From: Botryllus schlosseri
Lineage: Eukaryota
Length of the DNA stretch: 64,000 nucleotides
Reading direction: 5' to 3'
Assembly (NCBI GenBank): GCA_051294905.1
Contig: CM119372.1
Span: 5,830,001 to 5,894,000 of the forward strand
In this document: positions 3,849-64,000 of the stretch, in pieces
Layout of the letters: each line of letters starts with the position of its first letter
Position numbering within the stretch: position 1 is the first letter of the stretch
The notes under the pieces: generated by a model
Told to the model about the DNA's origin: nothing
Database searches by the model: none
What the model saw: the letters and a program-made list of their open reading frames with translations, nothing else
Translations under genes and position numbers: made by a program

Positions 3849-4058
3849 CAATTACCTGCGACACACCTCCGAACGTCTCAAACGGGACTATAGGTGATGG
3901 ATGTTACAGTGGAAGTCCACTAAATGCAACATGCACAGTAACCTGTAATAATGGTTACTGTATTAGCGGGGATGAGGAGGTCACGTGTGTCGATAAGCCT
4001 GGATCAGATGATACAAACAGCAAAGGAGAATGGAACTACGGGGACACGACGTGTACAG
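3849..4058 (+). CDS. Sushi/CCP exon A (210 bp, phase 1-1)
   Basis: catag|CAATTACCTGC...TGTACAG|gtaact; ITCDTPPNVSNG...CTVTCNNGY...CVDKPGSDDTNSKGEWNYGDTTCT. Confidence 0.9.
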
Positions 4059-4161
4059 GTAACTGAGTACAATGGGTTGGTTATTTTCATATTGCTATAA
4101 TTAGTACATTGTTCACTATTCGCGGCGTAATGAAATAAAAGTTTTGAAATTGATTTAACAG

Positions 4162-4371
4162 CCATTACCTGCGACACATCTCCGTCTGTTGCGAACGGGA
4201 TTATAGGAGATGGATGTGACAGTGGAAGTTCACTACATGCAGCATGTCCAATAACCTGTAATAATGGTTACTATATTACCGGTGTAGAAGAGGTCACATG
4301 TGTCGATACGCCTGGATCAGATGATACAAACAGGGTAGGCGAATGGGACTACGGCGGCACAACGTGTACAG
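4162..4371 (+). CDS. Sushi/CCP exon B (210 bp)
   Basis: aacag|CCATTACC...ACAG|gtaact; open frame ITCDTSPSVANG...GEWDYGGTTCT. Confidence 0.9.
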
Positions 4372-4411
4372 GTAACTGAGTACAATGGGCTAGTTATTTT
4401 CTTGTTGCTGT

Positions 4412-4861
4412 TGTAGCGTCCTGATACGGCATGCCAAGACCTAACAGGAACTTCGTCGTCGGGACCTCGCCTTTCCGCGGTCGCACGCACCGGTAACACA
4501 AATCCACATTGCTTCATACGCATATATTCACATAACGACATGACCTCGCAAAACATACAAATTGGCACGAAACCCAACCAACTACGTTACACACATAAAC
4601 AATGCAAAAAACCCAGTAGCCTTGTCAACCCTAGACACTTCCTACTGTACTACCCCACTTGAACTATACGGGTACTACTTCAACTTCAAACCACAACATA
4701 GGCTACTCGCTCACAACCAGCACCTCCAGCCACACTCCCAGCCAGACCAAGAACTTTTCTCCTTCTCCCCAGACTACCACGTGCAACCCACATACCGATC
4801 ATTCATTCTAGAAAAAGCTAAACGACAACACAACGTGATCACTGATCACCAGGGCGTTACA
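4412..4861. mobile_element. Solo LTR copy 1 (Gypsy-like, 4-bp TSD CTGT)
   Basis: TGTAGCGTCC...GGGCGTTACA termini with CTGT on both sides; absent from the homologous A-B intron. Confidence 0.8.
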
Positions 4862-4869
4862 CTGTAGTG

Positions 4870-5817
4870 CAGTGGTTCTCAACCGGGGGTCCGCGGACCC
4901 CTGGGGGTCCGTGAAGCATTTTCAGGGGGTCCGCGAAGCCTCTGAATTTGTAAAATGATTGTCAGCCTAATTTTTATTTATTCTTTAATTACAGGAAAAG
5001 CATGAACCAGATTCGCTTCGTAATTGTTAAAACTTTAGAACTCAAATCAGTCAAATGGTCGTCAGAGATGAAATATCCGACTGTGCAATCTCATTTTATT
5101 TGTCAAATTGCCAATAGCATTCTGTTGTAAACATATTGCTGTTTAGAGATGTTTGCTGGGGTTTGTGGAAAAATGAAGTGTTGGAGATAGCAAAATCAAA
5201 CAGGGTGACTTCGCAATGCTTGCAAAACATTTTCAATTTGTTGTTGTCAGTCTCAGCAAATTAGTAAACAGTCGTTTAAAACATAAATTCCTTAATTTTT
5301 TCCTAATCTGTCCCCATGAAGGAATTGAAATCTCGCCACGAAATCCATTTTCTTCTGTGATATAACCACTGAATACCTTCTATATGAGATGCTATAGGAT
5401 ACAGATAGAAATGACCAGGTTGGACGTGATATATCCATTGAAAAATCACACCAAAAGCTGTCATCTGAAGCGTTGCGCGTCAATATTACATTTGCTACCA
5501 ATATATATTTGTGGAAATCGATATTCGGCATTCGTTCATATCAAATCGAAGACGTGGATTTTTAAGACAATAAATACAGCTCGAAAATTACCTTCGAAAT
5601 AATAAAATTCTACCCAGTTTCTACATACAGTGTGCTGAAATTTTCAAGAAAAGTCATTTTGTGGCTGTTTATCACTAGGCTGCAATTAATAATTACACGG
5701 GACAGATGGTGGTTGTACGATAAGTGAGCTAATTTTGAACGAAAACTTGAGGGGGTCCGCGGGGGTTAGTGACGGGCGAAAAGCGGTCCGCGAAGACGAA
5801 AAGGTTGAGAACCACTG
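4870..5817. mobile_element. Non-autonomous hAT element
   Basis: TIR CAGTGGTTCTCAACC; perfect TSD CTGTAGTG; related sequence near 35312-36140. Confidence 0.92.
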
Positions 5818-5880
5818 CTGTAGTGCATTGTTTACTATTCGCGGCGTAATGAAATAACAGTTTTGAAATTAATTTAACAG

Positions 5881-6090
5881 CCATTACCTGCGACACATCT
5901 CCGTCCATTGCGGACGGGATTATAGGAGATGGATGTGACAGTGGAAGTTCACTAGATGCAGCTTGTCCAATAACCTGTAATAATGGTTACTATAGTACCG
6001 GTGTAGAAGAGGTCACATGTGTCGATACGCCTGGATCAAATGATACAAACAGCGTAGGCGAATGGGACTACGGCGGCACAACGTGTACAG
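5881..6090 (+). CDS. Sushi/CCP exon C (210 bp)
   Basis: Intact AG/GT sites, open frame, near copy of exon B. Confidence 0.9.
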
Positions 6091-6130
6091 GTAACTGAGT
6101 GCAATGGGCTGGTTATTTTCTTGTTGCTAT

Positions 6131-6574
6131 TGTAGCGTCCCTGATACGACATGCCAAAACCTAACAGGAACTTCGTCGTGTTCGTGTGCTCGGGACCTCG
6201 CCTTTCCGCGGTCGCACGCACCGGTAACACAAATCCACATTGCTTCATACGCATATATTCACATAACGACATGACCTCGCAAAACATACACATTGGCACA
6301 AAACCCAACCAACTACGTCACACACATAAACAATGCAAAAACCCCAGTAGCCTTGTCAACCCTAGACACTTCCTACTGTACTACCCCACTTGAACTACGG
6401 ATACTACTTCAACTTCAAACCACAACAAACTCGCTCACAACCAGCACCTCCAGCCACACTCCCAGCCAGACCAAGAACTCTTCTCCTTCTCCCCAGACTA
6501 CCACGTGCAACCCACATACCGATCATTCTAGAAAAAGCTCAACGACAAAACAACGTGATCACCAGGGCGTTACA
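6131..6574. mobile_element. Solo LTR copy 2 (4-bp TSD CTAT)
   Basis: Same termini and body as 4412-4861, with CTAT on both sides. Confidence 0.8.
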
Positions 6575-6641
6575 CTATAATTAGTGCATTGTTCACTATT
6601 CGCGGCGTAAAGAAATAACAGTTTTGAAATTAATTCAACAG

Positions 6642-6851
6642 CCATTTCCTGCGACACATCTCCGTCTATTGCGGACGGGACTATAGGAGATGGATGTGAC
6701 AGTGGAAGTTCACTACATGCAGCATGTCCAATAACCTGTAATAATGGTTACTATATTACCGGTGTAGACGAGGTCACATGTGTCGATACGCCTGGATCAG
6801 ATGATACAAACAGGGTAGGCGAATGGGACTACGGCGGCACAACGTGTACAG
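6642..6851 (+). CDS. Sushi/CCP exon D (210 bp)
   Basis: Intact AG/GT sites; 5 substitutions relative to exon B. Confidence 0.9.
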
Positions 6852-6971
6852 GTAACTGAGTATCGTGGGCTGGTTATTTTCATGTTGCTATACTTAGTAT
6901 AGTACTGTTCACTATTCTCGGCGTACTGAAATAATATTTATAAAACCAATTTCACAGCCATTACCTGCGAC

Positions 6972-8743
6972 CAGAGTTGGATCAATAACAATATTTTAAT
7001 TTAATTACAATTACAAATACAATTACTTCCTTGCATGTTTTAATTACATTACAATTACAATTACTCAATGCTAAAAATATCAAATTACAATTACAATTAC
7101 AATTACTGTTAAATATGTAATTAATTACAATTATAATTACATTATAATTACTTTTAAACAGGTAATTGATTCAGTAAAGAGGTGTTCTTTGACAACCGTA
7201 GCGACGTACTAGCAACAATCTCAAGCTATTCATGTTCCATTCCTGATATGTAGAATACCCTATAAATAAAAAAAACTCGAACGTATTCGAACTATTCCTA
7301 ATCATGAGTACTGAAAACTACAAGCATAGAAAAATGTTTCAAGCGACTGTTAGGAACCACAGGTTTGAGCGACTAACAGCGAATGGGCTACAGGACAGTC
7401 AATGAAATGTAATCAAACGATTAGGCTACTCAGAGCTGAGTCATTTTTTTTCTATTTGTCGAATGTTAAATGTGCAATGAGGGATATGATATTCTTTTTT
7501 GCCTGCACCATCGAGATGCTTTGACGACGGAGTTGCGATACGGCCGTGAGGTCATCTAGTCAGGATAATGAAGTGTAATTGGTAAGTCGTCAGCGATAAG
7601 GATGATACCGATAAGTTGCGTAAAATTAAAATAAATGCAAAAGGAAAGAACCTCCTAATAACTAAGAATTACAATATTTTGGTTCGCATTTACATTTTCA
7701 GCTGCTCGGAAACTGTTAGATTGCATTTGATGAACATTAGGGTGCGAAAAGTTTCTGGCTCAGTAGATTTGGTCAAGATTGGAGGTAAGATTGGGATAAC
7801 ATCTCAACAAATGCGTGATCAAGCCTTTGATGAAGCCTTGGTTAGAAACTTGAATTTTTTTTTGCTTTTGTTGCAACAAGCCTCGGTACTGGTCAAAGAT
7901 TTAAAAAAAAACTTTGACCGTGGTGTAGGAAATGGTTCAGCACAGGTTTCAGAAGAGTTTATTTGTTGTTCATCTATGTTTGAAATATAAAGATTTAGTT
8001 TAGCCCACTGGTTCTCTAACTTTTTTAGACACGCCCCCCTTCGTGTCAGTGAATATTTCGTGACTCCTTATCATCATAGCACACAATGAAACCAGAAAGT
8101 TAGCAATCCTTACATATAGTTTGATGGTATGGAAGGTTATGACTGTTGATGAGAGAATTCTCCAATACGAAATTCAGACTATACACCGAGCAATAACCAT
8201 AAAACGGAGGTGAATCGGGCCAAGCGCGGAAAAGATTTCAGTTCACTGGACCGTCGCGCCCCGTTCAGATGCTTTCACGCCGCCCAGTGGGGCACGCCCC
8301 CAGTTTGAGAACCACTGGTGTAGCCTATATTGTAATTCACAAAGTTTTCTCTGTTGCTACTGAAGTATGGGAAACAGTTTAGCGTGACTGAATTATCTAT
8401 AGTTATAACGCAGCACGCATAGAACACCGATGTAAATAGGCTAATTATTACATGTGGTGACTGTTTACTAAGGCCTTAAGGCCCCTCGTCGTCATCCTGG
8501 TTCGTACCGGATTTTCACTGGTGCGACGAATAAATGATTGATTAAATGAATATTTATGTTGTGATTGTCAGGTTTCCATGAAAATGTAATTGAGATTGTA
8601 ATTGAGCAAAATTTTGATCAAATTACAATTACAATTACAATTACACAAAATAGAAATGCTTCAATTACAATTACAATTATAATTACATGAAAAAATGTAA
8701 TTTACATTCAGCTCAATTACAAATTACAATTGATCCAACTCTG
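6972..8743. mobile_element. Non-autonomous hAT-like element inside exon E, with ATTACA subterminal repeats
   Basis: 15-bp TIR CAGAGTTGGATCAAT; perfect TSD CCTGCGAC. Confidence 0.93.
8006..8317. mobile_element. Nested hAT MITE
   Basis: CACTGGTTCTC / GAGAACCACTG; TSD GTTTAGCC/GTGTAGCC. Confidence 0.75.
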
Positions 8744-10214
8744 CCTGCGACATATCTCCGTTCGTTTCGAACGGGATTATAGGAGATGGGTGTGACAGTG
8801 GAAGTTCACTAGATACGGCTTGTCCAATAACGTGTAATGCTGGTTACTATATTAGCGGGGATGAGAAGGTCACATGCGTCGATAAGCCTGGATCAGATGA
8901 TACTAACAATGAAGGTGAATGGGTCTACGGTGGCACAAATTGTACAGGTATTAATTATAAACAAGCGGATGGTTCCTTTCATGTCCACATACGCTGCCCA
9001 CTATACTATGAGTTCCGAAAAAATATTACGATTGAGATATACTGCCCTCCCGATACGCTTTCACCTGCCTGACAGTTACTGTTCTCGCGGGAACTACTAT
9101 ATTCATATTGGTCTTGCATAGACCGTTAAGGCGCAGGCATATATTCTGTTGCAAGTCCCCGTCAAAATTGTTGGCAAGGCGATGGAATATATGGATTTTA
9201 TGGAATTTATTCGATTTCTTTGATTGTTGATACATTTGGTGACGTTTAAATAGTCGGCGTGTACTTCATCAGCATTGTGGCATAATGAGGCTTGAGTCGT
9301 CGCTAACTATGGTGCAGATTAATATATCACTTCACTGAAATGTAGGGTTGTAATTTGCAATTGACGTCACGTGACGTCATCGGTTCATGTTTGCGTTAAC
9401 AAAGGACATTTAAAAAAGGTTCGCGTTCACACGTACCTGAACATTTACGAGGTTCGATACTCAATAGATTTGGCAGTAGTCGACAGCTCGATGCGGTGGC
9501 TGTTGATCACCGGCATTCTACGGGTGTAAAAAGGTATGTTTTCAGGCATTTCCGGAACCGGATGCCAAAGCTAACAACTCTAAAATTTTCAATATGGCAA
9601 ATATAGGACTTCATGAAAATATGGATTTTATGAAAGTTTTGATAAAACTGTCCATGAGAATTCAGAATATATTGTATGACGCGAAAAAACAAGCTTGCAT
9701 AGCAAAATTCCTACATTAGGAATTTACGATAAAACCTCCGGGGGTACTAGGACCATCTTTCAAGGGGTTCACGAAAGGCGAATGAAAACGCGAAAACATC
9801 GAGTAATTGAATCTGGATTTAGGGCCAATCTGCGGATTGATCAACTCAGCGATTAGATAATATACGATATCCAACGATAGATAGATACTCCTGGCCAGCA
9901 AAAGTAGAGTGTCCTTGGGTATTAACATATTTTGGAATCCGTGCAATGACTGGGCGTTTTTCTGTGGCCACCGCTCGTCCATTTTTGTTACATCATGTAG
10001 ACGCCACGCGAGATCCAGGTGCATTTAGTTCAATGCTAATATATATACCAAATTCATTTCACTTTTAATTTGCCATTAAAAATTTCTGCATGGTTCAATC
10101 ACTGATAGAGTGTGTCACGCTGTCCGATAGGGACACAGTTTAATCAATAAACATGAACAATTAACATACTCGGTGTAAAAGGCCTAGTCACCCAGATACA
10201 AATACCATATATAC

Positions 10215-11763
10215 CAGTGGTTCCCAAACTTTTTCGGTGTGAGGGCCAAATTTAGAATTTCAGAGTACGGTCGGGGCCGCGCGCATACTACGGCTTCGAA
10301 ACGGACCCAAACAGTCATCATGGCGATTTCGGAATAGTTTTATTGCCCTGGCGAGATTTCAAAACTGTACACTGCTATGTTTACCGCTACTTATCTGCTA
10401 CATTGGGTGTCCGTTGAGTGAATCAGCTTTTCTCGCCTAAACGCTCGAAGCGCGAGAAATTTATTTGGTTTCATGACTGAATTGGTCAATATGGTCGAGA
10501 ATTGCATGTATTGCTATCAATTTTCACCCTGTCTCTGTTCACGTCATCTTATTTACCGGTAGGGCTGAGTGAGGTGTGTTTGAAAAGGTATAGGCCCCCT
10601 CAATAGTAATTAAACATCTCCGGGGGTATACTCGTTGGCAGGAACGTAACGGTACTTATTCGTCAGGATCCCGGGCTCCAATAGGGTGATAAACTGACCC
10701 CGCATCACGTTGTTCGCTTTTACCACGAAATTAAAATTGTACTGTTTAGTGAGACAGCGCGACGCGCGAATATTTCGATAATTCATGATAAAATCGGTGA
10801 ATAAGATCGGGAATTGCATGGTTGTCCTCTTTGCCCACGTAATCAGATTTACCGTTAGAGCTGAGTGAAAGGTGTCTTTGAAACTGCGGACCCCCTAAAA
10901 TTAAACATCTTCGGGCGGGTGGATCCCTAGGTATGACTTCTTTACATGATGTTATTTCGTCACCTCCTGTCTGCTATATCAAAAACTGAAACATAACACG
11001 ATTTCAGATTGGTATTTCTTCACTGGCATATAATTTCATATCTGCGGGATGGTATTTGTTTTGTGAGGTTCAGATTGCCAAGACAAGAACATTCGGTGCC
11101 AGTCATTTAGGCGCCTATATGGACAATTAAACTTATGTGTATTTTGTATATATAACGAAGTTTTTGGTATTTCGAAGTTTTTGGTCAGCATAAAAGCAGT
11201 CCTTTACGGCCAAGGCGTTCTCGCTGCCGATCGTTCTGACACCTCTTGGAGTCACATGTTAGCCTACATGACCTAAAACTTTTTATGTCTTGGTGCGCTG
11301 TGGTGCGTTCATGGTACACGCTGATATGCCCATTACTATAAATCTTGCGTATATTTTCTTGGGGAACAGTACCCAATAATCAAGATACGAGGCGAATTGA
11401 AATCGCACACAGTGCGAAAAATTTTTGAAAAAGTTGCATAAATTTTAAAAAAATACTCTATAATTTATGCTAATTCACGAAATAATTTTGGCCCCCCTTC
11501 GAGCTCAGCCCCCCTCAATTGGGTGCGGCAGTTACGGCCCTGACTATAGGACTACCAATTATGCTGCTTTTAGCCGGCTAAGCAGTATGCATCTCGGCGT
11601 ATTCAACCGTGAGCCACGTGTTGCACATCTAGTTATCACAGGGTTACCATACGTCCTTTTTTAGGATGATTTGTCCTCTTTTATTTTTTGTCATAAATCG
11701 ATTTCTTAATATATTTTTGGGGCCGCAAGAAGGCTATCTGGGGGCCGCACTTGGGAATCACTG
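10215..11763. mobile_element. Non-autonomous hAT element with a nested partial inverted copy of the 46360-47646 family
   Basis: CAGTGGTTCCCAA / TTGGGAATCACTG; perfect TSD ATATATAC. Confidence 0.85.
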
Positions 11764-11887
11764 ATATATACCATTTATTCAGTCCTTTATTATAGATTTT
11801 CTTTGTTGTCATAAGTGGTATTGTATTGTGATCTGTGTGAATACCGGTAAATTTGCACGCATAGCGAATCGACTATTAAGATAAGAT

Positions 11888-12988
11888 TAGGGTTACCATA
11901 TTTCAGCAACCCAAATTCCGGACACTCTTTAGCGCCCACTAGTGGATTTCAAAATGGGTTATGACGTCACACTAGCAAAGCTTCGCTCATAGACCAGAGG
12001 TGGTCACGATCCGGTTCAGGAGTATGTGGCTGTGTGTTGTGTAACCGGGACCGATGCGACATGTTTTCAACTCCTCCACGCCCAAATAAACAATGATTTT
12101 GAGCCCACACTATAGGGTAATCGACGCAACTTCTGGGGGGGGGGGGCGTGCTATATGAATCTGGTTTCTATATGCATCTGTTCGTTCAATTATTTGAATG
12201 AATTCTGTCAATAATATTGGTCGTTCTACTCTCCGCCCACATGATCAGAGTTAGCGGTAGAGCTGGTGGAGGATGATGACTTCGAAAATACAGGGAGCGT
12301 AATTGCACATCGTTGAGTCATGTTCATGTCCTACCGATAAGATTGTTCATCAGCCTTATGCCGGTGCGCACCACGGAGCTTTATAAACACCTCAAATCCA
12401 GTGGTTTCCAACCTTTTATGGGCGCGACTCCATCTCCAATTTGAAAATGTTCCGTGACCCAGATCAAAATTTGACGAGCTGATTACTAAGAGTCAGCACC
12501 TTTGCCCAGACTTACTCACGGGCTATTTTGGAAGCTGATTACGTTCAACATATTCGCAAACCCCAGAATAAAGGCAAACGACCCCCCCTCCACCCCCCGT
12601 TTGGAACCACTATCTTTGAATAAAGCATTTAAACGGCCTTAACAATTTCTAGGAATATACCGTTCTCCTATAATTGTGGTTGCAATTAGGCTTATTCCAG
12701 TAAATGAAGGTTGTTTTATTTATATTTTTTGGCAGGATTTGCGAGAGTGGTAGTCTCCATATTAAAATCAATAAACGTGATAGTAAATCGCGCGCAGCGC
12801 GAAGAAAAATATCATGCATCAGCATAAATATTCCAAAAAATATTGTTTTTATGCTGATTTACGAAAAAATTATGAGCCTACGTCAAAATTCCGGACAATT
12901 GGCATATTTTAGAAATTCCTCCCGGACGCTAGTTTAAACAGTGAAATCTCGGACATGTCCGGGAAATTCCGGACGTATGGCAACCCTA
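11888..12988. mobile_element. TAGGGTT(A/G)CCATA-family element
   Basis: TIRs present; TSD GATAAGAT/GATTAGAT; inverted homolog at 27841-28680. Confidence 0.85.
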
Positions 12989-14365: not shown

Positions 14366-14428
14366 CCATTACCTGCGAAACATCCCCGGGTGTATTGAAC
14401 GGGATCATAGCAGATGGCTGTGGCAGTG
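14366..14428 (+). pseudogene. Truncated Sushi pseudo-exon F
   Basis: tacag|CCATTACCTGCGAAACATCC..., ITCETSPGVLNGIIADGCGS, after which homology stops. Confidence 0.8.
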
Positions 14429-14723
14429 ATAAAAATACTGCTGAAAAATGAGATGATGATACTATATCACATATAAGTTGCTGGGTAGTCTAATTCTCCG
14501 CAGAAAGTATGTATTACATAAAACCGAATAAAGTTCAGTGTACATTTGTTTTAACGACATATAGGTTAATATTAAAACGATTCGATGAAAACTTGACTAT
14601 CAACTTTAATGTTATTTTGAATCCTCAATTTTCAATTTCTTATTTGTTGGTTCATGTTCATATATAGATGTATAAAAACATTGAATTCGCAATATCTCAT
14701 TTAATATAACATAAATTTCACAG

Positions 14724-14938
14724 CCATTACCTGCGAAACACCCCCGAATATACTGAACGCGATCATAGCGAATGGATGTGGTAGTGGAAGTCTATTAGAT
14801 GCAACATGTTCAGTAACTTGTAATGATGGTTACTATATTGGGGGGGGGGGGATGAAGAGGTCACGTGTGTCGATACGCCTGGATCAGATGATACAAACAG
14901 TGTAGGCGAATGGGACTACGGCGGCATACTGTGTACAT
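14724..14938 (+). pseudogene. Sushi pseudo-exon G
   Basis: A 12-G run (14840-14851) adds 5 nt and shifts the frame; the donor reads ACAT|ttacct instead of ACAG|gtaact. Confidence 0.85.
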
Positions 14939-15049
14939 TTACCTGAGACAATGAGTTGGTTTATAACCGTTATTTCATGTTACTATAATTAGTACAATTT
15001 TCACTATTCTCCGCATACTGAAATAATGGTTATAAAATGAATTTTACAG

Positions 15050-15259
15050 CCATTAACTGCGACACATCTCCGGTCGTTGCGAACGGGATTATAGGAGATG
15101 GGTGTGACAATGGTAGTTCACTCGATGCAGCATGTCCAATAACCTGTAATAATGGTTACTATGTTAGTGGAGATGAAATGGTCACATGTATTGATACGCC
15201 AGGATCAGATGATACAAACAGGGTTGGCAAATGGGACTACGGCGGCACAACGTGTACAG
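15050..15259 (+). CDS. Sushi/CCP exon H (210 bp)
   Basis: Intact splice sites; lies within ORF 15037..15402 (INCDTSPVVANG...GKWDYGGTTCT). Confidence 0.9.
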
Positions 15260-25854: not shown

Positions 25855-25920
25855 ACGTATGTGTTAGCGATACGGATCCTTTTTGCATGTATATTTAACT
25901 ATATACTCGTCCCTCTATTC

Positions 25921-29808: not shown

Positions 29809-30018
29809 CGGTGACATGTACTGAAGATCCTCACTTTTCTAATGGAGCTGTCGATGCACCATGCCAGTCCAACAGTACCTCCGGTACCTCATGTTATATA
29901 ACATGCAACGAAGGCTATTATTTGAGCGGCAATGGATATGTAACATGTGTCGACACTAATGTAACAGATGATACAAACGAAGACGGGAAGTGGAACTACG
30001 GAGACACTGCATGTACAC
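29809..30018 (+). CDS. Divergent Sushi/CCP exon I (210 bp)
   Basis: ttcag|CGGTGACATGT...TGTACAC|gtaaga; VTCTEDPHFSNG...DTNVTDDTNEDGKWNYGDTACT. Confidence 0.88.
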
Positions 30019-32632: not shown

Positions 32633-32671
32633 GATTAGTTCAAAATGCTCGTCCTTTTATAAACTTCACAG

Positions 32672-32881
32672 CCATTACCTGCGAGACATCTCCGGAAGTA
32701 CAGAGCGGGTATATCGCAGATGGATGTCACAGTGGAAGTCTATATGATGCTACATGTCATGTTACCTGCTATTATGGTTATTATATCAGGGGGGATGAAG
32801 TCGTCACGTGTATCGATATACCGGATTCAGGTGATACAAACAAAGAAGGCGAATGGAACTACGGTGGCATAAACTGTACAG
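32672..32881 (+). CDS. Sushi/CCP exon J (210 bp)
   Basis: cacag|CCATT...ACAG|gtatta; ITCETSPEVQSG...GEWNYGGINCT. Confidence 0.88.
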
Positions 32882-33432: not shown

Positions 33433-33639
33433 CTATGAAGTGTGGAGTAGCTCCTTATATTCCGAATGGATTGTATAGGGAGGGATGCCCCTCTGATACA
33501 GAAGTCAATACAACGTGCACCATAACGTGTAACGATGGGTATTATCGGAATGGAAGTAACACAGTTGAATGCATTGATGCCGACCTGGAGAGCAATACCA
33601 ATGTGGATGGAGAATGGAATTACGATACTGCATGTATAC
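33433..33639 (+). CDS. Sushi/CCP exon K, second subtype (207 bp)
   Basis: tttag|CTATGAAGTGT...ATAC|gtaagt; MKCGVAPYIPNG...DADLESNTNVDGEWNYDTACI. Confidence 0.88.
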
Positions 33640-33964
33640 GTAAGTTGTATATTATGTTGTGGTGTACTTCCGATTAAATTTCAGAAGTTATATAGATTAT
33701 TGCAATGTCTAATTTGTGCACTCATATTAATATCTACGAAAATGGGTCAAATACAGATCCTATTTCGTGAAAAATTACTTGGTAATTTGCATGGGATTCT
33801 CCAACATTCGTTTCTTGCTTGACTCTCCTCCCGTAGAATAGCATATCTACGTTTCAAGTTTGCAAATTGAATGAAACGGAAAATCGTGTAAGTTCAGTAT
33901 AGCCTATGTAGCCTTGTTCACAACTTTTTAAAATTTTGACTCTACACTAAATTAATCTTAACAG

Positions 33965-34174
33965 CCATTACCTGTGAGACATCTCCGAACGTACCGAACG
34001 GGTTTATAGCAAATGAATGTGACGGTGGAAGTGAATACAATGAAACATGCCAAGTAACCTGTTATGCGGGTTACTATATTAGTGGGGAGGAAAAGATCAC
34101 GTGTGTCGATGAGCCTGACCCAGATGACACAAACACAGAAGGCGAGTGGAATTACGGTGGCACAACGTGTACAG
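33965..34174 (+). CDS. Sushi/CCP exon L (210 bp)
   Basis: aacag|CCATT...ACAG|gtatat; open frame ITCETSPNVPNGFIANEC... (not in the ORF track). Confidence 0.88.
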
Positions 34175-34204
34175 GTATATTAACTATATATAAAGATATG
34201 ATTG

Positions 34205-37775: not shown

Positions 37776-37817
37776 TAATCATTGAAGGTTTTTCTTCACT
37801 CATCCCTGACTAGATGT

Positions 37818-39813: not shown

Positions 39814-40199
39814 CTACATGTGAGGCACTGCCTCACTTGCCTACCATAACCCGCGTCACTGACATATCACACCCTGCAGTGACTATTACTGCTGTAATGA
39901 CCATGTCTGTTATCCACCTATACTCATGTGATAAGAAAAATATGGCACATACTATGAATCCCAGATATTGCTGCTAACAATAAATCAAAAATTTTGAATG
40001 GTGACGTAACAGTTGATTGACATATATATGGCTCTTTGGGAGTTACAATTCAAAATATTGGGCCAATATGGCTCTTCGGTCGGAAAAGGTTACCGACCAC
40101 TGCTCTATACCAAATGGATGTTTACCAAACTGTCTTTGATCGCTGTAAGTCAACTTTTAATTGTTTGGCATCGACTAAGAAGTCATATTCTATTAATGT

Positions 40200-40884
40200 A
40201 TTTACTCATCGAGCTACTCGTGGATGGCAGCATGATCAAGGACAAGCTTGCAGTAGGAGAAAAGTTCAATCAATATTTTTGCAACATTGGTCCGGAACTT
40301 GCAGCTTCAATACCAAACTCCTCTAATGACTTTTTCTCATACTTGAGTCCTGGCCCTCAGAAATCCATTTTTCTTGAGCCGACAAGTAGAGGAGAAGTTG
40401 CGATCGTATTATCTGAAATGAAAAGTAACAATGCCGTAGGACCCGATCTCATCCCAACTCACTTTCTGAAGCTAGTCTTTAATATTATTGGTGATGTTAT
40501 GCATTTTCTTTAATGAGTCGATACGTATGGGCATTTTTCCAGACGCAGTGAAAACTGCCAGAGTAATATGCCAGTGTTTAAGAAAGGCTGTAAAAAACTA
40601 ATATCTAACTACCGACCGACCGATATCTGTTTCGTCAAATCTTGCCACGATTTTCGAGAAACTGATTGACTGCCGACTCAAAATTTTTTTTGAATTGAAT
40701 GCAGTACTGTCTCCGAGTCAGCATGGATTCAGATCAAATCACAACACCAACCATGCAGTACAATCAATTGTAACGGACTATTACAAAACCATCAAGCAAA
40801 AAAAAAGTGGCTGCAGCATTTTCATCGACCTCCGGAAAGCTTTCGACACTGCTAACCACAGAATCTTAAGATACAAGCTAGAAC
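40200..40884 (+). pseudogene. Degenerate non-LTR retrotransposon ORF2, 5' part
   Basis: FNQYFCNIG, AVGPDLIP, QHGFR, FIDLRKAFDT motifs with frameshifts. Confidence 0.85.
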
Positions 40885-43800
40885 CAGTGGCGTAGCAGCC
40901 ACCTGGCGGTTCTGGCTCTGCGCCAGGGGCGGCAGGCTCCAAGGGGGCGGCAAAATGAGGCTGCAAAGTGTACATGTACACAGCTGGCTAAAATCAGCGT
41001 AATTTGTAGTCCTATAGCTGGCGTGAGCAAAAATATAATCAAACTGGTCTCAATAGAAAGCTGTGTCGCGCTGATTCCGAAAACACGAACTAATATGTTA
41101 ACATGGCAATGGAACCATACTCCGAAATCGGCGTCAAGGCCGATTGTTCCTAACAATCGCAGCGCCACAAGCCCACAACACAATGACCAATTGACCATGA
41201 CAATGAAAATTATATCGTGCGATTATTCAGAACGATGTCGATTGTCAGACCAGCATTTCAATTGTATTTACAGAGGCAGGGCAACAATAGCTTTCGATTA
41301 CGATCAGCATTGGTAAATTTGAGCTCTCGGAGGCCCTGGCCAACTATTCAAGTGTGACTATTCAAGTTGAGCATGTATCCGTAGGTTAGTGATCTATACT
41401 CTGGGTTACGATTTGGTACAGCAGAGCGAGATAGTTGTGAAGGTAAACCAGTCTTAGGAACTGTTTAAGTTGGTAATAATTGTCAGATTCACAGATTGTG
41501 CTTAAATTAATACAAGTGTTAATTAAGACTAGAAAATGAAACGTGTCAAAGAGAGTGGAGCTTTTTTTAGAAAGAAGAAGAAAGCAAGACAAGCAGAAAT
41601 AAAAAAGCACGAGGGAGCTATGCTAAAATTTGTAACCTCTTCTGGCTCAAATGTCTCTTTAACATTACCAGAGATCGATTCAAATGAAAATCAGGACAAT
41701 AACGCTGAGCTACAAAAAGATACTGAAAAGATCAGCTTATCTGCAGAAACGCAAGAGACAGAGCATACCAAGAGTAATAGGCCTACCAATGATATCAATT
41801 ATGCACTGCCTGGTACACATGTAGACGAAAGTGAAAACAACGAAGAAGCAGTTGCAGTAGTGAACAATCTACCCAATGATGTGGACTCGTGGCCTGAAGT
41901 TATAGATCACCATTTGAGAGTAGAGCTAGTCAAGGCAGGGCCAGAAATGTATCAAAACAAGGATTGGCCATTTGCTTCCAGCAGCAGAATAATTAAAGTT
42001 GGCGACAGCACTAAGATTGAGCGAAGAAGTGTTTCCAAAGAATGATTCTATAAAATACTCAAAAACGGTGACAGAATTTTGAGAAGTTGGTTATTATATT
42101 CGAAAAAGCAATCTGGATTGTATTGTTATTGCTGTAAGTTGTTCCACCTTACTGGACCTGCCTTATTTAGCACAAAATGTTTCGATCATTTTTGGCATTT
42201 AAATCCACGCATATTTGAGCATGAGGATTCCCAAATACACAAAGAATGCATGGAAAAATGGAAAGAGCTTGCAATGAGACTACAATCGCAACAAACAATT
42301 GACAAGAACATGCAGAAACATATGGATGGAGAGCGAAAGAAGTGGAGAGCAATTTTAGAAAGCGTTGTTGATGTCATATTATTTCTAAGTAAACAAAACC
42401 TTCCTTTTCGAGGACATCGTGAAGATTTTGAATCCAACAACCAAGGGAATTTTTTAGAGACCGTGAAGCTTCTGGCAAAATATAGTCCCGTACTCAGCAA
42501 ACATCTTTCTGATATTTCTATTTCTAAGAAGATGACAACTACTTATCTTTCTTCCACTACTCAAAATGAGCTTATTTTGCTTCTCAGTAAAAAAGTCAAA
42601 AGCATCGTTCTTGAAGAGGTGCGCGAAGCCAAATATTTTGCGATTATGTGCGACAGTACTCCGGACATATCACATACTGATCAAATGACTCTTATAGTGA
42701 GGTATGTAACAATCAAAAACAGTTTTGCCCAACTGAAGGAATCGTTTTTGAATTTCTTTCCGTTGAACGGAAAAACGGCAGCTGAAATTTCTCAATCTAT
42801 TCTAGATGAACTTGAACTAAACAACTTAGATGTGATGATGTGTAGGGGACAAGGCTACGACAACGCATCTACTATGTCGGGAATTCATGCTGGAGTGCAG
42901 CAAAAAATCAAAAACATAAATCCAAAAGCATTATTCGTGCCGTGTGGAAATCACACACTGAATCTTGCAGGCGTTCATGCCGTCGGATCATCGCAATTAA
43001 GCGACAGATTTTTTGCTGTTTTAGAAAGATTGTATGTATTTTTTGCTGCCTCTACGCATAGATGGGATGTCCTTCTAAAGCATGCGCCAATCGCGCTGAA
43101 GCGAATGATTGATACGCGATGGAGCGCACATCACGCCGCTGTAAAGGCCCTTCACGCATGTTTTGATGAAATTTTGGATGCTCTTGAGGAACTAGGTAAT
43201 CCAAACGAAAATCTTGCTACAAGAGGTGACGCTCATAGTATTCTGGAAGCGATTCAGAATTTCTCTTTCTATTCCTTCTTATGTTTTTGGAAAGTAATCC
43301 TGCGAGAATCTCATGACACGCAAACTTACTTGCAGCAAAAAGGACTGTTGTTAGAGCAATGCTCTAACAAGATGAAAGCGTTTGTTAACTTTTTAGTGGA
43401 AGAACGAGCTCACGTGGTTGAAGGTTCTGTGGATGCAGCGATCACAAAATGCAGAGAGCTCGAGATTCCAGTTGAAGATCGGAGAGTTCGCAGAAAAAGA
43501 AGAATGCCCGGTGAACAATCAGAAGATGCTGGCCTCAGTGTTGTTGAAGAAGTTAGACGATGCATGTTTCAAGCATTGGACAGATTTAAACTTGAAGCTG
43601 AAACTAGGTTTACCGGCATGCACCAGTTGAATGATATGTTTGGATTTTTGAATCCCCACGTGCTGCTGCAAATCGAAAGTCACAATTTATTCACCAGCGC
43701 TTTTAAAAGCACTTATGACGACGAGGTGGACTTTTTGGAGTTAGCTGCGGAAATCGACAGATTTAAGAGGCTGGTGCGGAGCAGTGGAACCACGTTTGAT

Positions 43801-44338
43801 CGTAGTGCAACGGCGTTTGATGTTTTACGGTGGTTAGTTAATGCAAAGCTACTTGATTCGACACCATATTTATGCTTGTGTCTGAAACTTTATCTGACGA
43901 TTGGTGTTTCAATTGCGAGCTGTGAGAGGAGCTTCTCAAAGCTCAAACTAATTAAGTCCTATTTACGTTCTACCATGAATGATGATCGGCTATCAGCTCT
44001 ATCCATTCTGTCTATAGAAAGAGACTACGTTAAAAAACTTGAATTTGAGGATATAATTGCTGATTTTGCTTCAGCGAAAGCCCGAAAAGTCAAGTTTTGA
44101 GGCGGCTATTGATTCTCTATTTGCACAATACATTCGTTCGCTATTTCTTGTCTTTATTATTTTTGACCTTATTAACGTTGCGACGGTGAGGCTGAGACGC
44201 GGCATATTATTTGTAATTATTTTTATTGACAAGATTGCTTTGAACATGAAGCTATGTCGAAATTTGCCGCGGTATACTTAGGGGGCGGCATTTCAAGCGA
44301 GAGCCAGGGGCGGCAGCACATGCTGCTATACGCCAGTG
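40885..44338 (+). mobile_element. Full-length hAT transposon inserted in the LINE RT
   Basis: CAGTGGCGTA / TACGCCAGTG termini; perfect TSD GCTAGAAC. Confidence 0.93.
41536..44100 (+). pseudogene. hAT transposase (TTF zinc finger, DUF4371-like, C-terminal dimerization domain) with a single in-frame stop
   Basis: ORFs 41536 and 42079 are in the same frame, separated by TGA at 42043. Motifs CYCC, FRGH, DSTPD, QGYDNA, CGNH, TRW, CERSFSKLKLIKSYLRSTM. Confidence 0.92.
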
Positions 44339-44346
44339 GCTAGAAC

Positions 44347-44640
44347 ACTATGGAATCAGGGATATTGCAGCAACTCTACTCGAGAACTACCTGGCAAACC
44401 GCAAACAATTTGTTAAACTGGGGACATCAAGAACGACTACCAGAGATATAACTTGTGGAGTGCCACAGGGCTCAGTCCTTGGACCGACTTTTTTCCTCAT
44501 TTATATTAATGATATTGTTAATGCATCTTTATTCCGCACAACCCTATTTGCTGATGATACTCACCTCTTTATAACCTCCAGCACTGTCGATGATTTGCAT
44601 GCATCTGTAAATAGGGAACTCCCAAAAGTATCGAGATCGC
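44347..44640 (+). pseudogene. Degenerate non-LTR reverse transcriptase, 3' part (CR1/L2-group-like)
   Basis: Continues KLE-HYGIR across the hAT insertion; GVPQGSVLGP...YINDI...LFADDT. Confidence 0.88.
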
Positions 44641-45294
44641 AGCAAACAAACTAAGTTTGAATGCAGATAAAACCGTGACGCTCGTTTTAAATAGGCCCTA
44701 ATGCCAATCATAATTCCACTGTGAACATCAATAATAAACAAATCTCATTGATCATTTGGTACCATCGTTTAATTTTTATTCTATTTTCCTTTTTTAACTA
44801 AACATTTTTTACAGCCAGACTGTTCAGAGTCAAGTGTACCTGTTTGATGCTGGTGTGATCAGACTAGATGACCTTCACGGTCTTATCGATCATTCCTATC
44901 TAATACCGAATATTGTGCATGCATATTTTCTGTACCACCATTACTGCCGTTTGTTATGTATTTTGGTTGGATGAAAATAAAGACTCTCTCCCTCTCTCTC
45001 TTACTAAATGTTCTGACGCGTTAGTCGTAGGCTATCGATTGCGTTTTCGCAAAGCAAATTACAGCCAACTTTTGGCTATTTTCCTGTCGGACATAGGGTT
45101 AATTCTGGGTTTGCATAATAATAGGCAACGAATTAGAATTTTTGTTATTAAAATCAAATCACAAAGCACAGGCATTTGGTACATGGAAATTTGCGCATAA
45201 ATATCTTAACTGTATCCGAATAAATACCATCCTTAAATGTTAAATGCAAAACTAAATAAATGTTTGAGGCTAAAACAGTTCGAGTATGAAATCA

Positions 45295-45950
45295 TTAAAA
45301 ATGGGATGTTTTGCGGGATTTTCTTTTGTACTCTACATCACTTTCCCACATTAAGACCCAAACGTAATCTTCCATCATGCTTCCATTATATTGCCCTTGG
45401 TATCTCTTTTCTAAATATTTTATGTCTTGATGCAATCGCTTCCCTTGTTTTCCTGAATAAGATCCCATATTATCTTCAAACTCGTCCAAGTGAGCGTCAA
45501 GCAAATGTAGTTTCATTCAGCACATCTGCAAAGCTATCCCAAGCCTTCTCCTCAACATCATTAAGCATTTGGATAAAACCATTCGACTTGAGAATCTTTT
45601 CAATTTGTGGGCCAATAAATACACCAACTTTTACTTTAGGTTTTGACAGTTAAGGAAACAAGTTCTGGAGAAACTGGAATGCGTCACCACCTTTGTCCAA
45701 TGATTTCGTAAATTGATTTATAGGGCCAAGTTTTATGCGAAGGGGAGGCTTAAGCCCTTTGTTTGGGTTAATCAACGGAGTTTTCTATACATTTTTCTCT
45801 CCAACAACAAATTCTTTTCGTTTTAGTCATATTTGCTGTTTGTAGTATTCTGCAGTAGCCCTACTATCCCAAAGGTGGTGACCCCCCCTTGCATACCCAT
45901 CAAAAACACTACAAGTTTTAGGTCCCCAATTACTTCCCAGTTATATTAAA
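45295..45950 (-). pseudogene. Chapaev3-like transposase C-terminal remnant
   Basis: KVGVFIGPQI and KLHLLDAHLDEF...GKRLHQDIKYLEKRYQG...MMEDYVW. Confidence 0.7.
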
Positions 45951-46359
45951 AATTTATCAATTGCGAATCATAAAACTTCGAAACATCAAAATCAAACCTG
46001 CAAACAGAAATATCTATAAAATGGCAAATATTGCAGAGTAGGCTATTTTAACATTCAAACGTGATTAACATACATCTTGGATGCTGTTTAGCCATATTTT
46101 AGGTTTCTTTTCTCAAAAGTAGTGCGATTTTAGAATTTCAATCTCTGAACCACAAAAGCAAAGTTTATATGGAATAAAGTCGATTTTTTATACTTACTGG
46201 TCCTAAGCAATACGGAAAAATTGGTTAGAACCTGGGAACAACAAGTTTTTTTGTTACATCGTGTAACATATTCACACACTCTATGCAGCGCCCACCCGTA
46301 ACTAAGTGAGCTGTATGCGATTTATAAATAGTTTCGTACAACACTTGCACCATTGTGAT

Positions 46360-47646
46360 CAGCACCGTAGCTGCCGCACCCCAAACCCCCCAATTGGGGG
46401 GGGGGCGAGCTCGAAGGGGGCCCAAAATTATTTCGTGAATTAGCATAAATCATAGAATATTTTTTGAAAATTTATGCAAATTTTTGAAATTTTTTTCGCG
46501 CTGGTCGCGAATTCCAGTAGCCATTTGTCTTTATTATTGGGTATTGGGCCATTAACGCGCCACGACCCACCAAGACATACAATCAAGTTTTGGGCCATAT
46601 AACATGAGACTCCAAGAAGTGTGCCAGAACGATCGGTAGCGAGAAAACCTTGGCCGAAAAGGTCTATGCCATTATGCTGACCGAAGACTTCGTTATATAT
46701 ACAAAATACATGTAGGTTTAATTGTCCATAGGCGCCTGAATGACTGGCGCCGAATGTTGCTGTCTTTGCAATCTGAACCTCACAAGACAAATACCATCCC
46801 GCTGGGAAAAAATTCATGCCAGTGATGAAATACCAATTTGAAATCGAGTGCGTCTCTTAGTTTAGAAGCTCACGTTTGGGCGATTCTATATTTTATGTTA
46901 TAGCAGACTGGAAGTCACGAAATAACATCATGTAACGAAGTCATATCAACGGGTCCGCCCGCCGAAGATGTTTAATTATTATTTACGGGCCCTCCCGTTT
47001 TCAAGACACTTCACTCGGCTCTACCGGTGAATCTAATTACGTGAGTAGAGAGGACAATAAATTGATAGCATAATATATATGCAATCGCCGATCTGATTGA
47101 CCGATATTATCATAAATTATCGAAAATTTTCGCGCTTCGCGCTGCCTTACGATACAGTACAGATGATTTCGTGACAAACGCGAACAACGTGATGGGGGGG
47201 TCGTTTTACACCCTATGGGAGCCCAAGACCCACGTTTTTGGGGGCCTGACGAGGTACTGTTTCGTTCCTGCCAATGGGTATACGCCCGAAGATGTTTAAT
47301 TATTATTGAGTCGTCCTACCTTTTGAAACACACATCACTCAGCTCTACCGGCAAATCTGATTACGTGAGCAGACAGAAGATAAAAATTGATAACAAAATA
47401 TATGCAATTACCGATCATACTAACCAATTCAATCATGAATTCTAGAAATTTTCCGCGCTTCGCGCGCTTCGGCGACAAAAGCTGTCTCACTAAACAAACT
47501 CCTAACAATATGATGAATAGCAGTAAACAGGGTATCGCCAGAGGGGTTCTGGGGGCGAAGCCCCCCAGAAGTTCGGCTTATAACCCTATGGGGGGCCCAA
47601 GACCAAAGTTTTTTTGGGGGCCTGACGAAGTGCTGTTACGGCCCTG
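46360..47646. mobile_element. Non-autonomous hAT-like element
   Basis: CAGCACCGTAGC / GTTACGGCCCTG; perfect TSD ATTGTGAT. Confidence 0.82.
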
Positions 47647-48890
47647 ATTGTGATGTACGCCCAAAGTAAACGATTACCTCTCTTTTACAGTCCCACAGAG
47701 AAAAAATATTTAAGCTTGTCAATTAGGGTAAAATTTGATCTTTTATTTCTCTATTTAATGGCAAACGTCTGACTTCTCGCATTTTTGAATTGAAGTGTAA
47801 AATTCCAGTATATATTTGGTGGGTCGGCAGGAAACATGGTCACGGAAGGGCGATTGAAAACCACTGACCTATTCGATAAAATAAGATATATAAAGAGTGA
47901 AAGGCGGTGTCAAACGTGGATTTTTCACTTTTTCCCAAAAATGACCGCAGCGCCGATAATTGATGCATATTATATTTCTTGTCTCTTTTAAAACGGGCGT
48001 TTCTCAAACTAGGGTATCCGTAACCCAAAGTAATTTCGGGGATACGGGAGCAACTTCATTTTCTGACACGCACTGTAGCAGTTTTCTCCAAAAGTGATTT
48101 TAACGTTTGGGCGTTAAGTTAAGGCCTAAACCATCATCATGCTTTTACGTTGCTGTGAAACGTTACTTGTCTTAACAACAATTTATGTAGATATTTTATT
48201 TTTCTCTGCTATCGCAATGAACCAGGGATGAGTGATTTCACGTAGTCTGATGTAGATTTAGGATTTGTTCTATACCGGTACCAGTGTCATTTGCTTATCC
48301 CGAACCCACTGGATTACAGCCATTTCGATATTTAGTGCTTTGCCTGTGTCCAGCGGGCTATGTATATTCTTTCAAACCGCGAAGCTACTCGGAAGCGGAT
48401 TTCTGATGAACTGATTATGCGTTGCGCCATTCCATGGCCACTTTCCGTGCAAATGATTTGATCTATGGTTCAGTCATATTCATCAATGTCAAAAATGTAT
48501 ACGGACAATTTTTGCTCTACCCCTTCATTTATACCATTGTGAGCAAGGTTTTTCAGGCATGGGCTTATTCAAGCAAACATTTGATGCTAGACTTTCATAT
48601 TAAAACATGATTTCCGAGTGTGCCCTCTTTAGAATGTAGGCTATGCCAATTGTCGAGTCTTTCTATGTATCGAGAAACGTGTCTGATATTGAATTCATAT
48701 GGTAGTATTTAATAGAGTGATTGGGAAAATCGCTTCAATTATTGAATTTGATTATTCTTAAAGTCATGTAAACTCTGAAAACCCATATCAGGCTTTCATT
48801 ACTTAAATGTACACAGATTGTGCATGAACGTAAAATGACGAAAGTGCACTGTGATCAGACTGGTTGGAAAGTTTTCATAATTTATTTCAG

Positions 48891-49076
48891 CTACTAAGTG
48901 TGGAGTAGTTCCGAATATTCAAAATGGAGAGTATAGGGAGGGATGCACCTCTGACAAAAAGGGCAATGTAACGTGCATCATAACCTGTAAAGATGGGTAT
49001 TATCGGAATGGAAGTAACACAGTAGAATGTATTGCCAATGTGACTGGAGAATGGAAATACGATACTGCATGTATAC
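48891..49076 (+). CDS. Sushi/CCP exon M, copy of K with an in-frame 21-bp loop deletion (186 bp)
   Basis: ttcag|CTACTAAGTGT...ATAC|gtaagt; TKCGVVPNIQNG...VECIANVTGEWKYDTACI. Confidence 0.85.
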
Positions 49077-49394
49077 GTAAGTTGTCTATATATAGTGGTG
49101 TACTTCCGAGTAACGTTCACAAGTTACATGGATGATTGCAATATTTAATTCGTACACTCATATTAATATCATATAATATAGGCCTACTGATCATATTTCA
49201 TGAAAAAATATTTGTTAATTCAGATGGAACTGTCCAACATCCGTTTCTCGCTTGACTCTTCTCCTTGAGAATAGCATATGTTCCTACTTTGAAAAGTAAA
49301 CGAAACAGAAAATCGTGCAAGTTCAGTATAGCCTATGTAGCCTTGTTCACAACTCTTTCAAATTTTGAGTTCTACACCAAATTAATCCTTACAG

Positions 49395-49604
49395 CCATTA
49401 CCTGTGAGACATCTCCGAACGTACCGAACGGGTTTATAGGAGATGAATGTGACAGTGGAAGTGAATACAACGCAACATGTCAAGTATCCTGTTATGAGGG
49501 TTACTATGTTAGCGGAGAGAAAGAGGTCACGTGCGTCGATAAGCCTGATTCAGATGATACAAACAGTGGCGGGCAATGGAACTACGGTGACACTACGTGT
49601 ACAG
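49395..49604 (+). CDS. Sushi/CCP exon N, paralog of L (210 bp)
   Basis: tacag|CCATT...ACAG|gtagta; lies within ORF 49265..49630. Confidence 0.88.
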
Positions 49605-49813
49605 GTAGTAACTATACGGACTATTATTAAGGGGATGTTTATTTTCATGTTCACATTCTCTCTCAAATAAACTTTGCCTGCTGAAATAATATTTAAATAC
49701 GTCATATTCTCATTAAAATATAACACTACCATCAATCATGACTTTATTAAATAAAGAACATAAAATGACTAATTAACATGGTGCGCGGACTGATATTTAC
49801 TCTCTGTTTATAG

Positions 49814-50020
49814 CTATGGAATGTGGTGAACTTCCGAGTTTTCCAACCGGCGATTTTGGTCCTGAATGTTCTCCTGGTAATAATGTCAATACAACGTGCG
49901 ACATAACCTGTAGGGATGTGTATTATAAGAATGGGGGTGGCACAGCAACATGTGTTGATGCCGACTCGGCGAGTAATAAGAATATGAATGGAGAATGTGA
50001 ATATGATTCTACATGTACAC
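49814..50020 (+). pseudogene. Sushi pseudo-exon O (K-type) with lost donor
   Basis: Donor reads ctaagt instead of gtaagt; conserved Trp is changed to Cys (GEC) and GYY to VYY. Confidence 0.75.
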
Positions 50021-63953: not shown

Positions 63954-64000
63954 CCAGTACTCATAATTCCATAGTGATGAATTTTTAACATAAAAGAGTG

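Follow-up and report, generated by a model that had tools for sequence, protein, structure and literature searches.

The stretch analysed here comprises 64,000 nucleotides of the Botryllus schlosseri genome (C2:5830001-5894000 of a 495.5-Mb assembly, C2 being the contig; hereafter the window). On its + strand lie 15 Sushi modules, also called complement control protein (CCP) modules, each held by a single exon. They are preceded by a putative signal-peptide exon and followed by predicted exons for three immunoglobulin (Ig)-like domains, a C-type lectin domain, a fibronectin type III (fn3) region and a transmembrane (TM) segment (Table 1). We propose, with a probability of about 0.72, that these exons belong to one predicted type-I membrane receptor gene, which begins with 15 tandem-duplicated, single-exon, phase 1-1 Sushi modules, 11 of them intact and four broken, the latter likely being skipped in frame. 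The predicted type-I membrane architecture, in the order Sushi array, three Ig-like domains, C-type lectin, fn3 and TM segment, appears to be previously undescribed. A search of the literature on this architecture and on Sushi exon arrays in ascidians found no description of this gene.

Sushi modules and the predicted receptor gene

The window is AT-rich (36-43% GC). In its + strand stop-to-stop frames, a six-cysteine motif of about 70 residues occurs repeatedly. Pfam matched Sushi (PF00084) in all 14 module open reading frames (E ≤ 0.051), and six of the 14 reached the 20.7-bit gathering cut-off. With a DNA profile of the modules, the + strand yielded 14 copies of full length (E ≤ 1.6e-43), as well as a 5′ fragment at 14344-14432 (E 3.8e-16) and, at 6941-6970, the 30-nt 5′ stub of a transposon-split module (E 0.029); on the - strand of the window it gave no credible module match. 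Sushi exon splice sites were read from the DNA sequence alone. An alignment and a coordinate script showed that each of the 11 intact exons is stop-free, in phase 1-1 and bounded by an AG acceptor and a GT donor. Nine of them are 210 bp long, exon 11 is 207 bp and exon 13 is 186 bp, all divisible by 3, and joining the 11 yields 760 stop-free codons. Because the modules are symmetric phase 1-1 exons, any subset of them joins in frame. The first-pass annotation of this DNA had placed an array of such exons between 3849 and 50020, with 11 intact and four dead members of 210, 207 or 186 bp; both bounds hold, and Pfam, the DNA profile and the splice-site check confirm the counts, lengths and phase.

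The identity of the modules was examined with a protein profile of 30 modules, 12 from the window, nine from the paralogue described below and nine from two upstream genes. Against PDB, this profile matched 63 sequences at E ≤ 0.01, and all 60 that were listed are CCP proteins, with CR2 as the best match (E 9.6e-30). Among those listed are CR2, CR1, factor H, factor XIII B, Crry, DAF and MCP, as well as poxvirus complement regulators, beta2-glycoprotein I and C4BP. In the 30-module alignment Cys3, Cys32, Cys46, Cys68 and Pro7 never vary, at least 90% of the modules have Trp61, and the CR2 alignment puts these cysteines, the proline and the tryptophan on the CCP framework. A third cysteine pair, Cys18/Cys28, is likewise invariant and is specific to the present module family. 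The modules thus combine a family-profile match with the four framework cysteines, Pro and Trp within about 60-70 residues, and the arrangement of one module per class 1-1 exon was found in 11 of 11 intact modules. Protein Atlas placed 23 of 30 matches in the Sushi set, with a recognition value of 2125, which is below 2300 and counts as weak evidence. An AlphaFold2 model of one module, built from 12 sequences, had a mean pLDDT of 40.7 and was too poor to use, and a wider protein search with the 30-module profile returned 15 generic Sushi proteins of 7997 scored.

The putative signal-peptide exon lies 723 bp upstream of the first Sushi module, and the segment 2986-3197 is 71% identical to the paralogue's 5′ end, with a common ATG, hydrophobic core and phase-1 donor. 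From the Sushi array to the lectin domain, every exon is phase 1-1. Downstream of the array, only Lectin_C and the first fn3 exon reach or exceed the Pfam cut-off. The intact paralogue form of Ig-like exon A gave weak V-set and I-set matches (E 0.016 and 0.059, below cut-off), and the lectin domain shares 93% amino acid identity with that of the paralogue. Within the fn3 region, the Pfam fn3 match (30.7 bits) is confined to the first exon, and the remaining five exons have no Pfam match. Exon ends downstream of the lectin domain were picked to keep the frame and to agree with conserved paralogue sequence. From Ig exon B to the TM exon, 11 exons join to 696 codons without a stop. At 60979-61045, the fn3 frame is kept only with a 65-nt intron (GTTAGT...TGCAG), and the paralogue has GT and AG at the matching places. 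Between and after the module groups, we found no neighbour-type TM or tail exon and no strongly hydrophobic frame beside the modules, except that at 61343. The signal-peptide, Sushi and downstream exons can be connected in a single open frame, and we infer that all exons, from the signal peptide to the TM segment, would form one transcript.

Table 1. Features of the window that bear on the predicted receptor gene (window coordinates)
Feature	Position	Strand	Description
Exon 1, putative signal peptide	3044..3125	+	ATG and 27-amino-acid hydrophobic leader (MMFMLLFLLKLAFVIFTLLSTHVSFSG); phase-1 donor G/GTGAGA (slash, exon end); predicted, signal peptide judged by eye
Sushi exon 1	3849..4058	+	210 bp, phase 1-1, intact; one extra Cys
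Sushi exon 2	4162..4371	+	210 bp, intact; first of recent triplicate
Sushi exon 3	5881..6090	+	210 bp, intact; recent duplicate, 96% identity to exon 2; about 500 bp of downstream intron co-duplicated
Sushi exon 4	6642..6851	+	210 bp, intact; recent duplicate, 98% identity to exon 2
Dead Sushi exon 5	6958..8947	+	Transposon-split after 14 nt (6958-6971 and 8752-8947); 210 bp without insert; acceptor and donor intact
Non-autonomous hAT-like element in Sushi exon 5	6972..8743		1772 bp; perfect 15-bp terminal inverted repeat CAGAGTTGGATCAAT; 8-bp target duplication CCTGCGAC
Dead Sushi fragment 6	14366..14431 (end approximate)	+	Acceptor intact, first ~66 nt of module, then unrelated sequence (truncation)
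Dead Sushi exon 7	14724..14938	+	215 bp; five extra G in a G-run, giving frameshift and in-frame stop; donor GT to TT
Sushi exon 8	15050..15259	+	210 bp, intact
Sushi exon 9	29809..30018	+	210 bp, intact; VTCTEDP subtype; orthologous to two paralogue modules
Sushi exon 10	32672..32881	+	210 bp, intact; both paralogue counterparts dead
Sushi exon 11	33433..33639	+	207 bp, intact; MKCG subtype
Sushi exon 12	33965..34174	+	210 bp, intact
Sushi exon 13	48891..49076	+	186 bp, in-frame 21-bp deletion, intact; duplicate of exon 11 (two-exon unit)
Sushi exon 14	49395..49604	+	210 bp, intact; last usable Sushi exon
Dead Sushi exon 15	49814..50020	+	207 bp; frame and acceptor kept; donor GT to CT; conserved Trp to Cys
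16th-module relic	50450..50560	+	MKCG subtype, one stop, cysteines lost; DNA profile E 3.2e-5; just past array end
Ig-like exon A	51882..52733	+	327 bp, phase 1-1 without insert; transposon-split in assembly
hAT-like MITE in Ig-like exon A	52093..52609		517 bp; 12-bp terminal repeat TAGGGCTGGGCA; 8-bp target duplication ATCACCAT
Ig exon B	52795..53097	+	Phase 1-1; Pfam Ig_3 E 1e-6, 29.6 bits (cut-off 30)
Ig exon C	53901..54212	+	Phase 1-1; Pfam Ig_2 E 1.5e-4, below cut-off
C-type lectin domain	54281..54685	+	Two phase 1-1 exons, 54281-54442 and 54503-54685; Pfam Lectin_C 25.3 bits (cut-off 22.6)
fn3 region, predicted	58965..61256	+	Six exons: 58965-59197, 59257-59439, 59846-60044, 60108-60213, 60863-60979, 61045-61256
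Transmembrane exon, predicted	61343..61424	+	YYAWIAGIVVPLFLVTIAIAVYFWRKK; 48% identity over 23 amino acids to TM exon of upstream neighbour, E 0.024

Growth and decay of the array

The modules of the window belong to a larger family, with at least 93 module matches in the genome that cluster on C2 (5.74-6.24 Mb), C4 and C5. The lectin and fn3 exons have exactly one other genome copy each, at C2:5.992-5.998 Mb, and a second copy of window positions 15300-61433 lies colinear at C2:5.968-6.000 Mb, with DNA identities of 77-90% that extend through the introns. The full paralogue (C2:5946066-6000200) lies about 107 kb downstream. Its 15 profile matches comprise nine open modules and six defective matches, corresponding to about five modules, judged by frame and not by splice sites; two of the defective matches look like halves of one split module, and its dead modules include one apparently split by a ~2.9-kb insertion. 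The paralogue also has its own internal ~4.3-kb duplication of five modules (paralogue coordinates roughly 29244-33627 and 33813-37900). In the 40 kb upstream of the window lie two genes, both of which contain Sushi repeats and, behind them, a TM-like frame, along with Tyr-containing tail frames.

Comparison of the window with itself resolves several duplication units. The segment 4102-4866 matches 5821-6579 at 92.7%, and 4095-4409 matches 6575-6889 at 95%. The exons at 4162, 5881 and 6642 share 96-98% identity and their 60-nt upstream introns 92-93%, so the very recent duplicates reported earlier are real. Two two-exon units were also found, 3816-4409 with 14690-15297 and 33389-34188 with 48845-49616, both pairs being 81% identical. 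Past 6889, the intron behind exon 4 aligns with the one behind exon 1, a pattern consistent with unequal exchange at this junction. In a maximum-likelihood tree, 32 module DNAs fell into three module subtypes, the triplicate formed a clade (100/96) and the 3′ modules paired with their paralogue counterparts. The window modules at 8746 and 14732 cluster there with upstream-neighbour modules (95/82 and 100/99), and the 5′ modules are closer to the neighbouring gene than to the 3′ modules. This grouping indicates that the 5′ third of the array came from, or exchanged with, a neighbour-type array.

Modules were lost by the four separate routes that had been recognized in the first reading of the sequence, namely transposable element insertion (exon 5), truncation (fragment 6), frameshift plus donor loss (exon 7) and donor loss (exon 15). 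The paralogue counterpart of exon 15 retains both the GT donor and the Trp. The idea that exon 15 serves as the terminal exon of a soluble isoform was unsupported, as no AATAAA or ATTAAA occurs within 1 kb downstream.

Overall, the array is well described by birth and death of modules, a reading already made in the first-pass annotation and now well supported by the window-specific duplicates, the two-exon duplication units, the four independent lesions and the like pattern in the paralogue. In the mechanism that we propose, the Sushi array has expanded through tandem copying of units of one and two exons and through exchange with a neighbouring gene. Exons that lack a donor or carry a transposon would be ignored by exon definition, leaving the frame unchanged. 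Ectodomain length would then change in the course of evolution as modules are duplicated, exchanged unequally and lost to decay, the mode known from other CCP-repeat genes; a dedicated diversity-generating splicing programme would not be involved.

Transposons and selection

Both transposons in coding exons carry an 8-bp target duplication and terminal inverted repeats, and neither has a transposase. By these features, an 8-bp duplication and short terminal inverted repeats, we take them to be members of the hAT group. The 517-bp element in Ig-like exon A, a miniature inverted-repeat transposable element (MITE), has a second, intronic copy at 55250-55765 with the target duplication ATTATCAC. 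A composite transposon in which the two 517-bp copies flank the Ig and lectin exons was rejected, since the target duplications differ. The exonic copy is missing both in the paralogue and in a 1217-nt contig of the DNA run X18, from another individual, which joins 52084 to 52610; in the flanking intron this contig matches the window at ~94% versus ~72% for the paralogue. The absence from both indicates that the insertion is recent and polymorphic. The reference allele, whose first Ig-like exon holds the transposon, may be impaired for that reason. This insertion, and not a change in Sushi copy number, is the sole structural difference between alleles that was observed.

Inside the MITE, a GT lies 23 nt from the 5′ end and an AG 5 nt from the 3′ end, both in phase 1, and splicing between them would leave a 36-nt in-frame insert. 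Removal of the element from Ig-like exon A in this manner would be intron-like behaviour. Over 49154-58145, the X18 contigs, which have the same species label, lie ~3-9% from the reference, and 7.6-7.9% within the lectin exon; this divergence reflects either very high polymorphism or a divergent lineage.

The two ~14.5-kb introns are filled with transposons. At 40010-44654 there is a non-LTR reverse-transcriptase frame (RVT_1 at 40602-40895 and 44250-44654), and the hAT element that splits it has a 684-amino-acid open frame with DUF4371 and a hAT dimerisation domain (42046-44100). Three adjoining open frames of 129, 299 and 304 amino acids lie on the + strand at 23160-25321 and match no Pfam family; since a similar stretch of peptide recurs ~15 kb upstream of the window, they probably belong to a mobile element with an undescribed protein. 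At 27046-27414 on the - strand lies a minisatellite, whose minus-strand frames read repeated SSQVESSRVK.

Comparison with the paralogue showed purifying selection on the exons downstream of the array: the ratio of nonsynonymous to synonymous rates (dN/dS) is 0.48, and 89 of 251 changes are synonymous versus 55 expected (p 7e-7). Older Sushi pairs within the array have dN/dS values of 0.25-0.67. When substitutions were simulated neutrally at 5% per site, the Sushi chain stayed open in 0.6% and the downstream chain in 0.7% of 1000 simulations each. The real exons, ~4.4 kb of coding sequence in 22 exons, diverge from the paralogue by 10-23% and retain their open frames and splice dinucleotides. 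As neutral simulation so rarely leaves the chains open, selection has maintained the frames over most of the period since the gene duplication. Among the downstream exons, the first fn3 exon (58965-59197) has 26 nonsynonymous versus one synonymous change against the paralogue (dN/dS ~7.9, binomial p 0.011), and the others range from 0.22 to 0.70.

Readings of the locus and known CCP systems

Several observations weigh against a single receptor gene. Four orthologous Sushi pairs gave a dN/dS of 0.72 (p 0.12), near neutrality and not distinguishable from 1, and the recent triplicate has nine nonsynonymous versus two synonymous variable codons, as expected without constraint. The reference allele bears a transposon in a coding exon, Ig-like exon A. 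The exon model downstream of the lectin domain is our own and includes the 65-nt intron picked for frame. A cytoplasmic tail was not found, and no colinearity with the paralogue occurred past 61433 in the 12.7 kb examined. In a collection of 5.8 billion proteins, no long protein carried the Sushi module (0 of 15 candidates) or Ig exon C (0 of 38). Among the sequencing runs listed as containing this DNA, none was on record as RNA. X1, X2, X6 and X23 were mapped on 3500-15500, and X23, X21, X22 and X18 on 44001-64000, Sushi exons 9-12 lying outside both; X23 is bulk RNA (~6% of reads used), X21 and X22 are single-cell (3-4%) and X18 is DNA. No RNA read from X23, X21 or X22 fell on the repeat-free exon bins, a result that, with 3-6% of the runs sampled, gives no verdict on expression. 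X23 had a depth of 0 in the repeat-free bins of exons 1, 2, 7 and 8 (3500-15500). In the bins of Sushi exons 13-15 and of the Ig, lectin and fn3 exons (44001-64000), depth was 0-0.18 in X23, X21 and X22 and 5.8-137 in X18. RNA depth in the mapped stretches was confined to intronic repeats, and nearly all X23 reads lay only partly on the stretch (385 of 387 at 3500-15500 and 5081 of 5125 at 44001-64000). The contig sets X1, X2 and X6, only guessed to be RNA, placed nothing on the Sushi exons within 3500-15500.

The locus, or at least the assembled allele, could instead be an unexpressed, decaying paralogue whose open exons have simply not yet been hit. The death of four of 15 Sushi modules and one relic would fit such decay, as would the 517-bp transposon in Ig-like exon A, the transposon-filled introns with their split reverse-transcriptase fragment and the Sushi dN/dS. 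However, the 22 open exons at 10-23% divergence are hard to reconcile with it, given that fewer than 1% of simulated chains stayed open at 5% neutral change, and the downstream dN/dS of 0.48 speaks against it as well. Moreover, the exon-disrupting transposon is absent from the allele of another individual and hence recent, and Ig-like exon A, being phase 1-1, could be skipped in frame. We regard decay of the whole locus as unlikely. It is quite improbable that the window holds two units, a 5′ array (3044-15259), the remnant of a gene of the neighbour type after loss of its membrane end, and a separate paralogue-type gene from ~29809. The grouping of the 5′ modules with the upstream neighbour, the onset of paralogue colinearity only at 15300 and the 14.5-kb transposon-rich gap between the halves suit this division, but the only signal-peptide exon found (3044) is of the paralogue type, and a self-comparison (E ≤ 1e-10) revealed no second copy of that stretch. 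In addition, no TM or tail exon follows 15259, and the phases permit direct joining of the halves.

The first-pass annotation had also suggested a diversified immune or allorecognition-type receptor. That reading is unsupported; in the version in which regulated cassette choice or haplotype-specific module number varies the ectodomains, we consider it very doubtful. It could draw on the phase 1-1 exons from the Sushi array to the lectin domain, the very recent duplicates and the exchange with a neighbouring gene, the cluster of at least 93 modules on three contigs, the near-neutral or diversifying Sushi changes and the ~3-9% distance of the X18 contigs here. It also finds a parallel in the Botryllus Sushi-bearing allorecognition receptors of the Fester family (FF) and the fester co-receptors (FcoR), for which copy-number variation, intergenic recombination and exon skipping are described (PMC12582321). 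Alternatively spliced cassette arrays of the Dscam type, in which regulated choice among array exons gives many isoforms in cDNA, are a known source of receptor diversity. However, one-module phase 1-1 exons are generic for CCP genes, the architecture is unlike that of FF or FcoR, and the dN/dS values show no positive selection on the Sushi exons. Since symmetric one-module exons and length change by duplication are normal for CCP genes, they do not by themselves point to a diversified receptor. A more far-reaching proposal would make the array the variable front of an individual-specific recognition receptor in a ~500-kb tunicate Sushi-receptor cluster, a second polymorphic recognition system, based on Sushi arrays, beside FF/FcoR. 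Exon duplication, unequal exchange with neighbouring genes, exon death and polymorphic hAT insertions would then produce haplotype-specific module number and order, and in-frame skipping of phase 1-1 exons would add isoforms; this, too, strikes us as a long shot. We retain one predicted receptor gene as our reading.

Modules of the regulators of complement activation (RCA) cluster mostly occupy one phase 1-1 exon each, and dead copies occur there. The present array resembles CR1/CD35 and other RCA-cluster CCP genes in its long CCP array, its predicted type-I membrane protein and its tandem duplication of multi-exon blocks, and CR2, CR1 and factor H are the best profile matches of its modules. 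In CR1, length alleles are reported to arise via low-copy-repeat copy-number variation (PMC3265835). In contrast to the CCP-only, C3b/C4b-binding ectodomain of RCA proteins (CR1/CR2/factor H), Ig-like, Lectin_C and fn3 exons follow the array here; the third cysteine pair Cys18/Cys28 and the dead modules inside the array are further differences. With FF and FcoR, the locus shares clustered membrane receptors with Sushi and Ig-like domains, and birth and death and intergenic recombination are reported for FF/FcoR (PMC12582321). Extracellular exons of FF/FcoR are skipped, and Sushi-bearing receptor clusters of a tunicate can hence be polymorphic and alternatively spliced. The study gives FF as Ig, one Sushi and three TM segments, and FcoR as Ig-Sushi-Ig-Ig, one TM segment and an ITIM/hemITAM-type tail (PMC12582321). 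Compared by this description, the present gene differs in having 11-15 Sushi modules first, then three Ig-like domains, lectin, fn3 and one TM segment.

A Ciona intestinalis protein predicted as 'E-selectin-like', P0004 (361 amino acids), is built from repeats of this same six-cysteine variant of Sushi (38% identity to the first module, profile E 1.1e-13). It differs in that its precomputed Pfam list contains Sushi only, without Ig, lectin or fn3, and it is itself a prediction; CSMD-like and SVEP1-like proteins are other multi-Sushi proteins named alongside it. Selectins, too, are type-I membrane proteins with both a C-type lectin domain and CCP repeats, in the order lectin-EGF-CCPn-TM. The order predicted here is CCPn-Ig-lectin-fn3-TM, unlike that of selectins, and no EGF domain was found.

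The locus offers a clear and fully mapped case of how a repeat domain evolves exon by exon. A single gene displays duplication units of one and two exons, an unequal-exchange junction, import of modules from a neighbour and four routes of exon death, and the paralogue provides an internal replicate of the pattern of live and dead modules. As it stands, the array mostly confirms the known mode of CCP gene evolution. It sits, moreover, in a large lineage-specific receptor cluster, and should polymorphism of this cluster and its expression in blood or epithelial cells be demonstrated, it would become a candidate for studies of immunity and self-recognition in invertebrate chordates.

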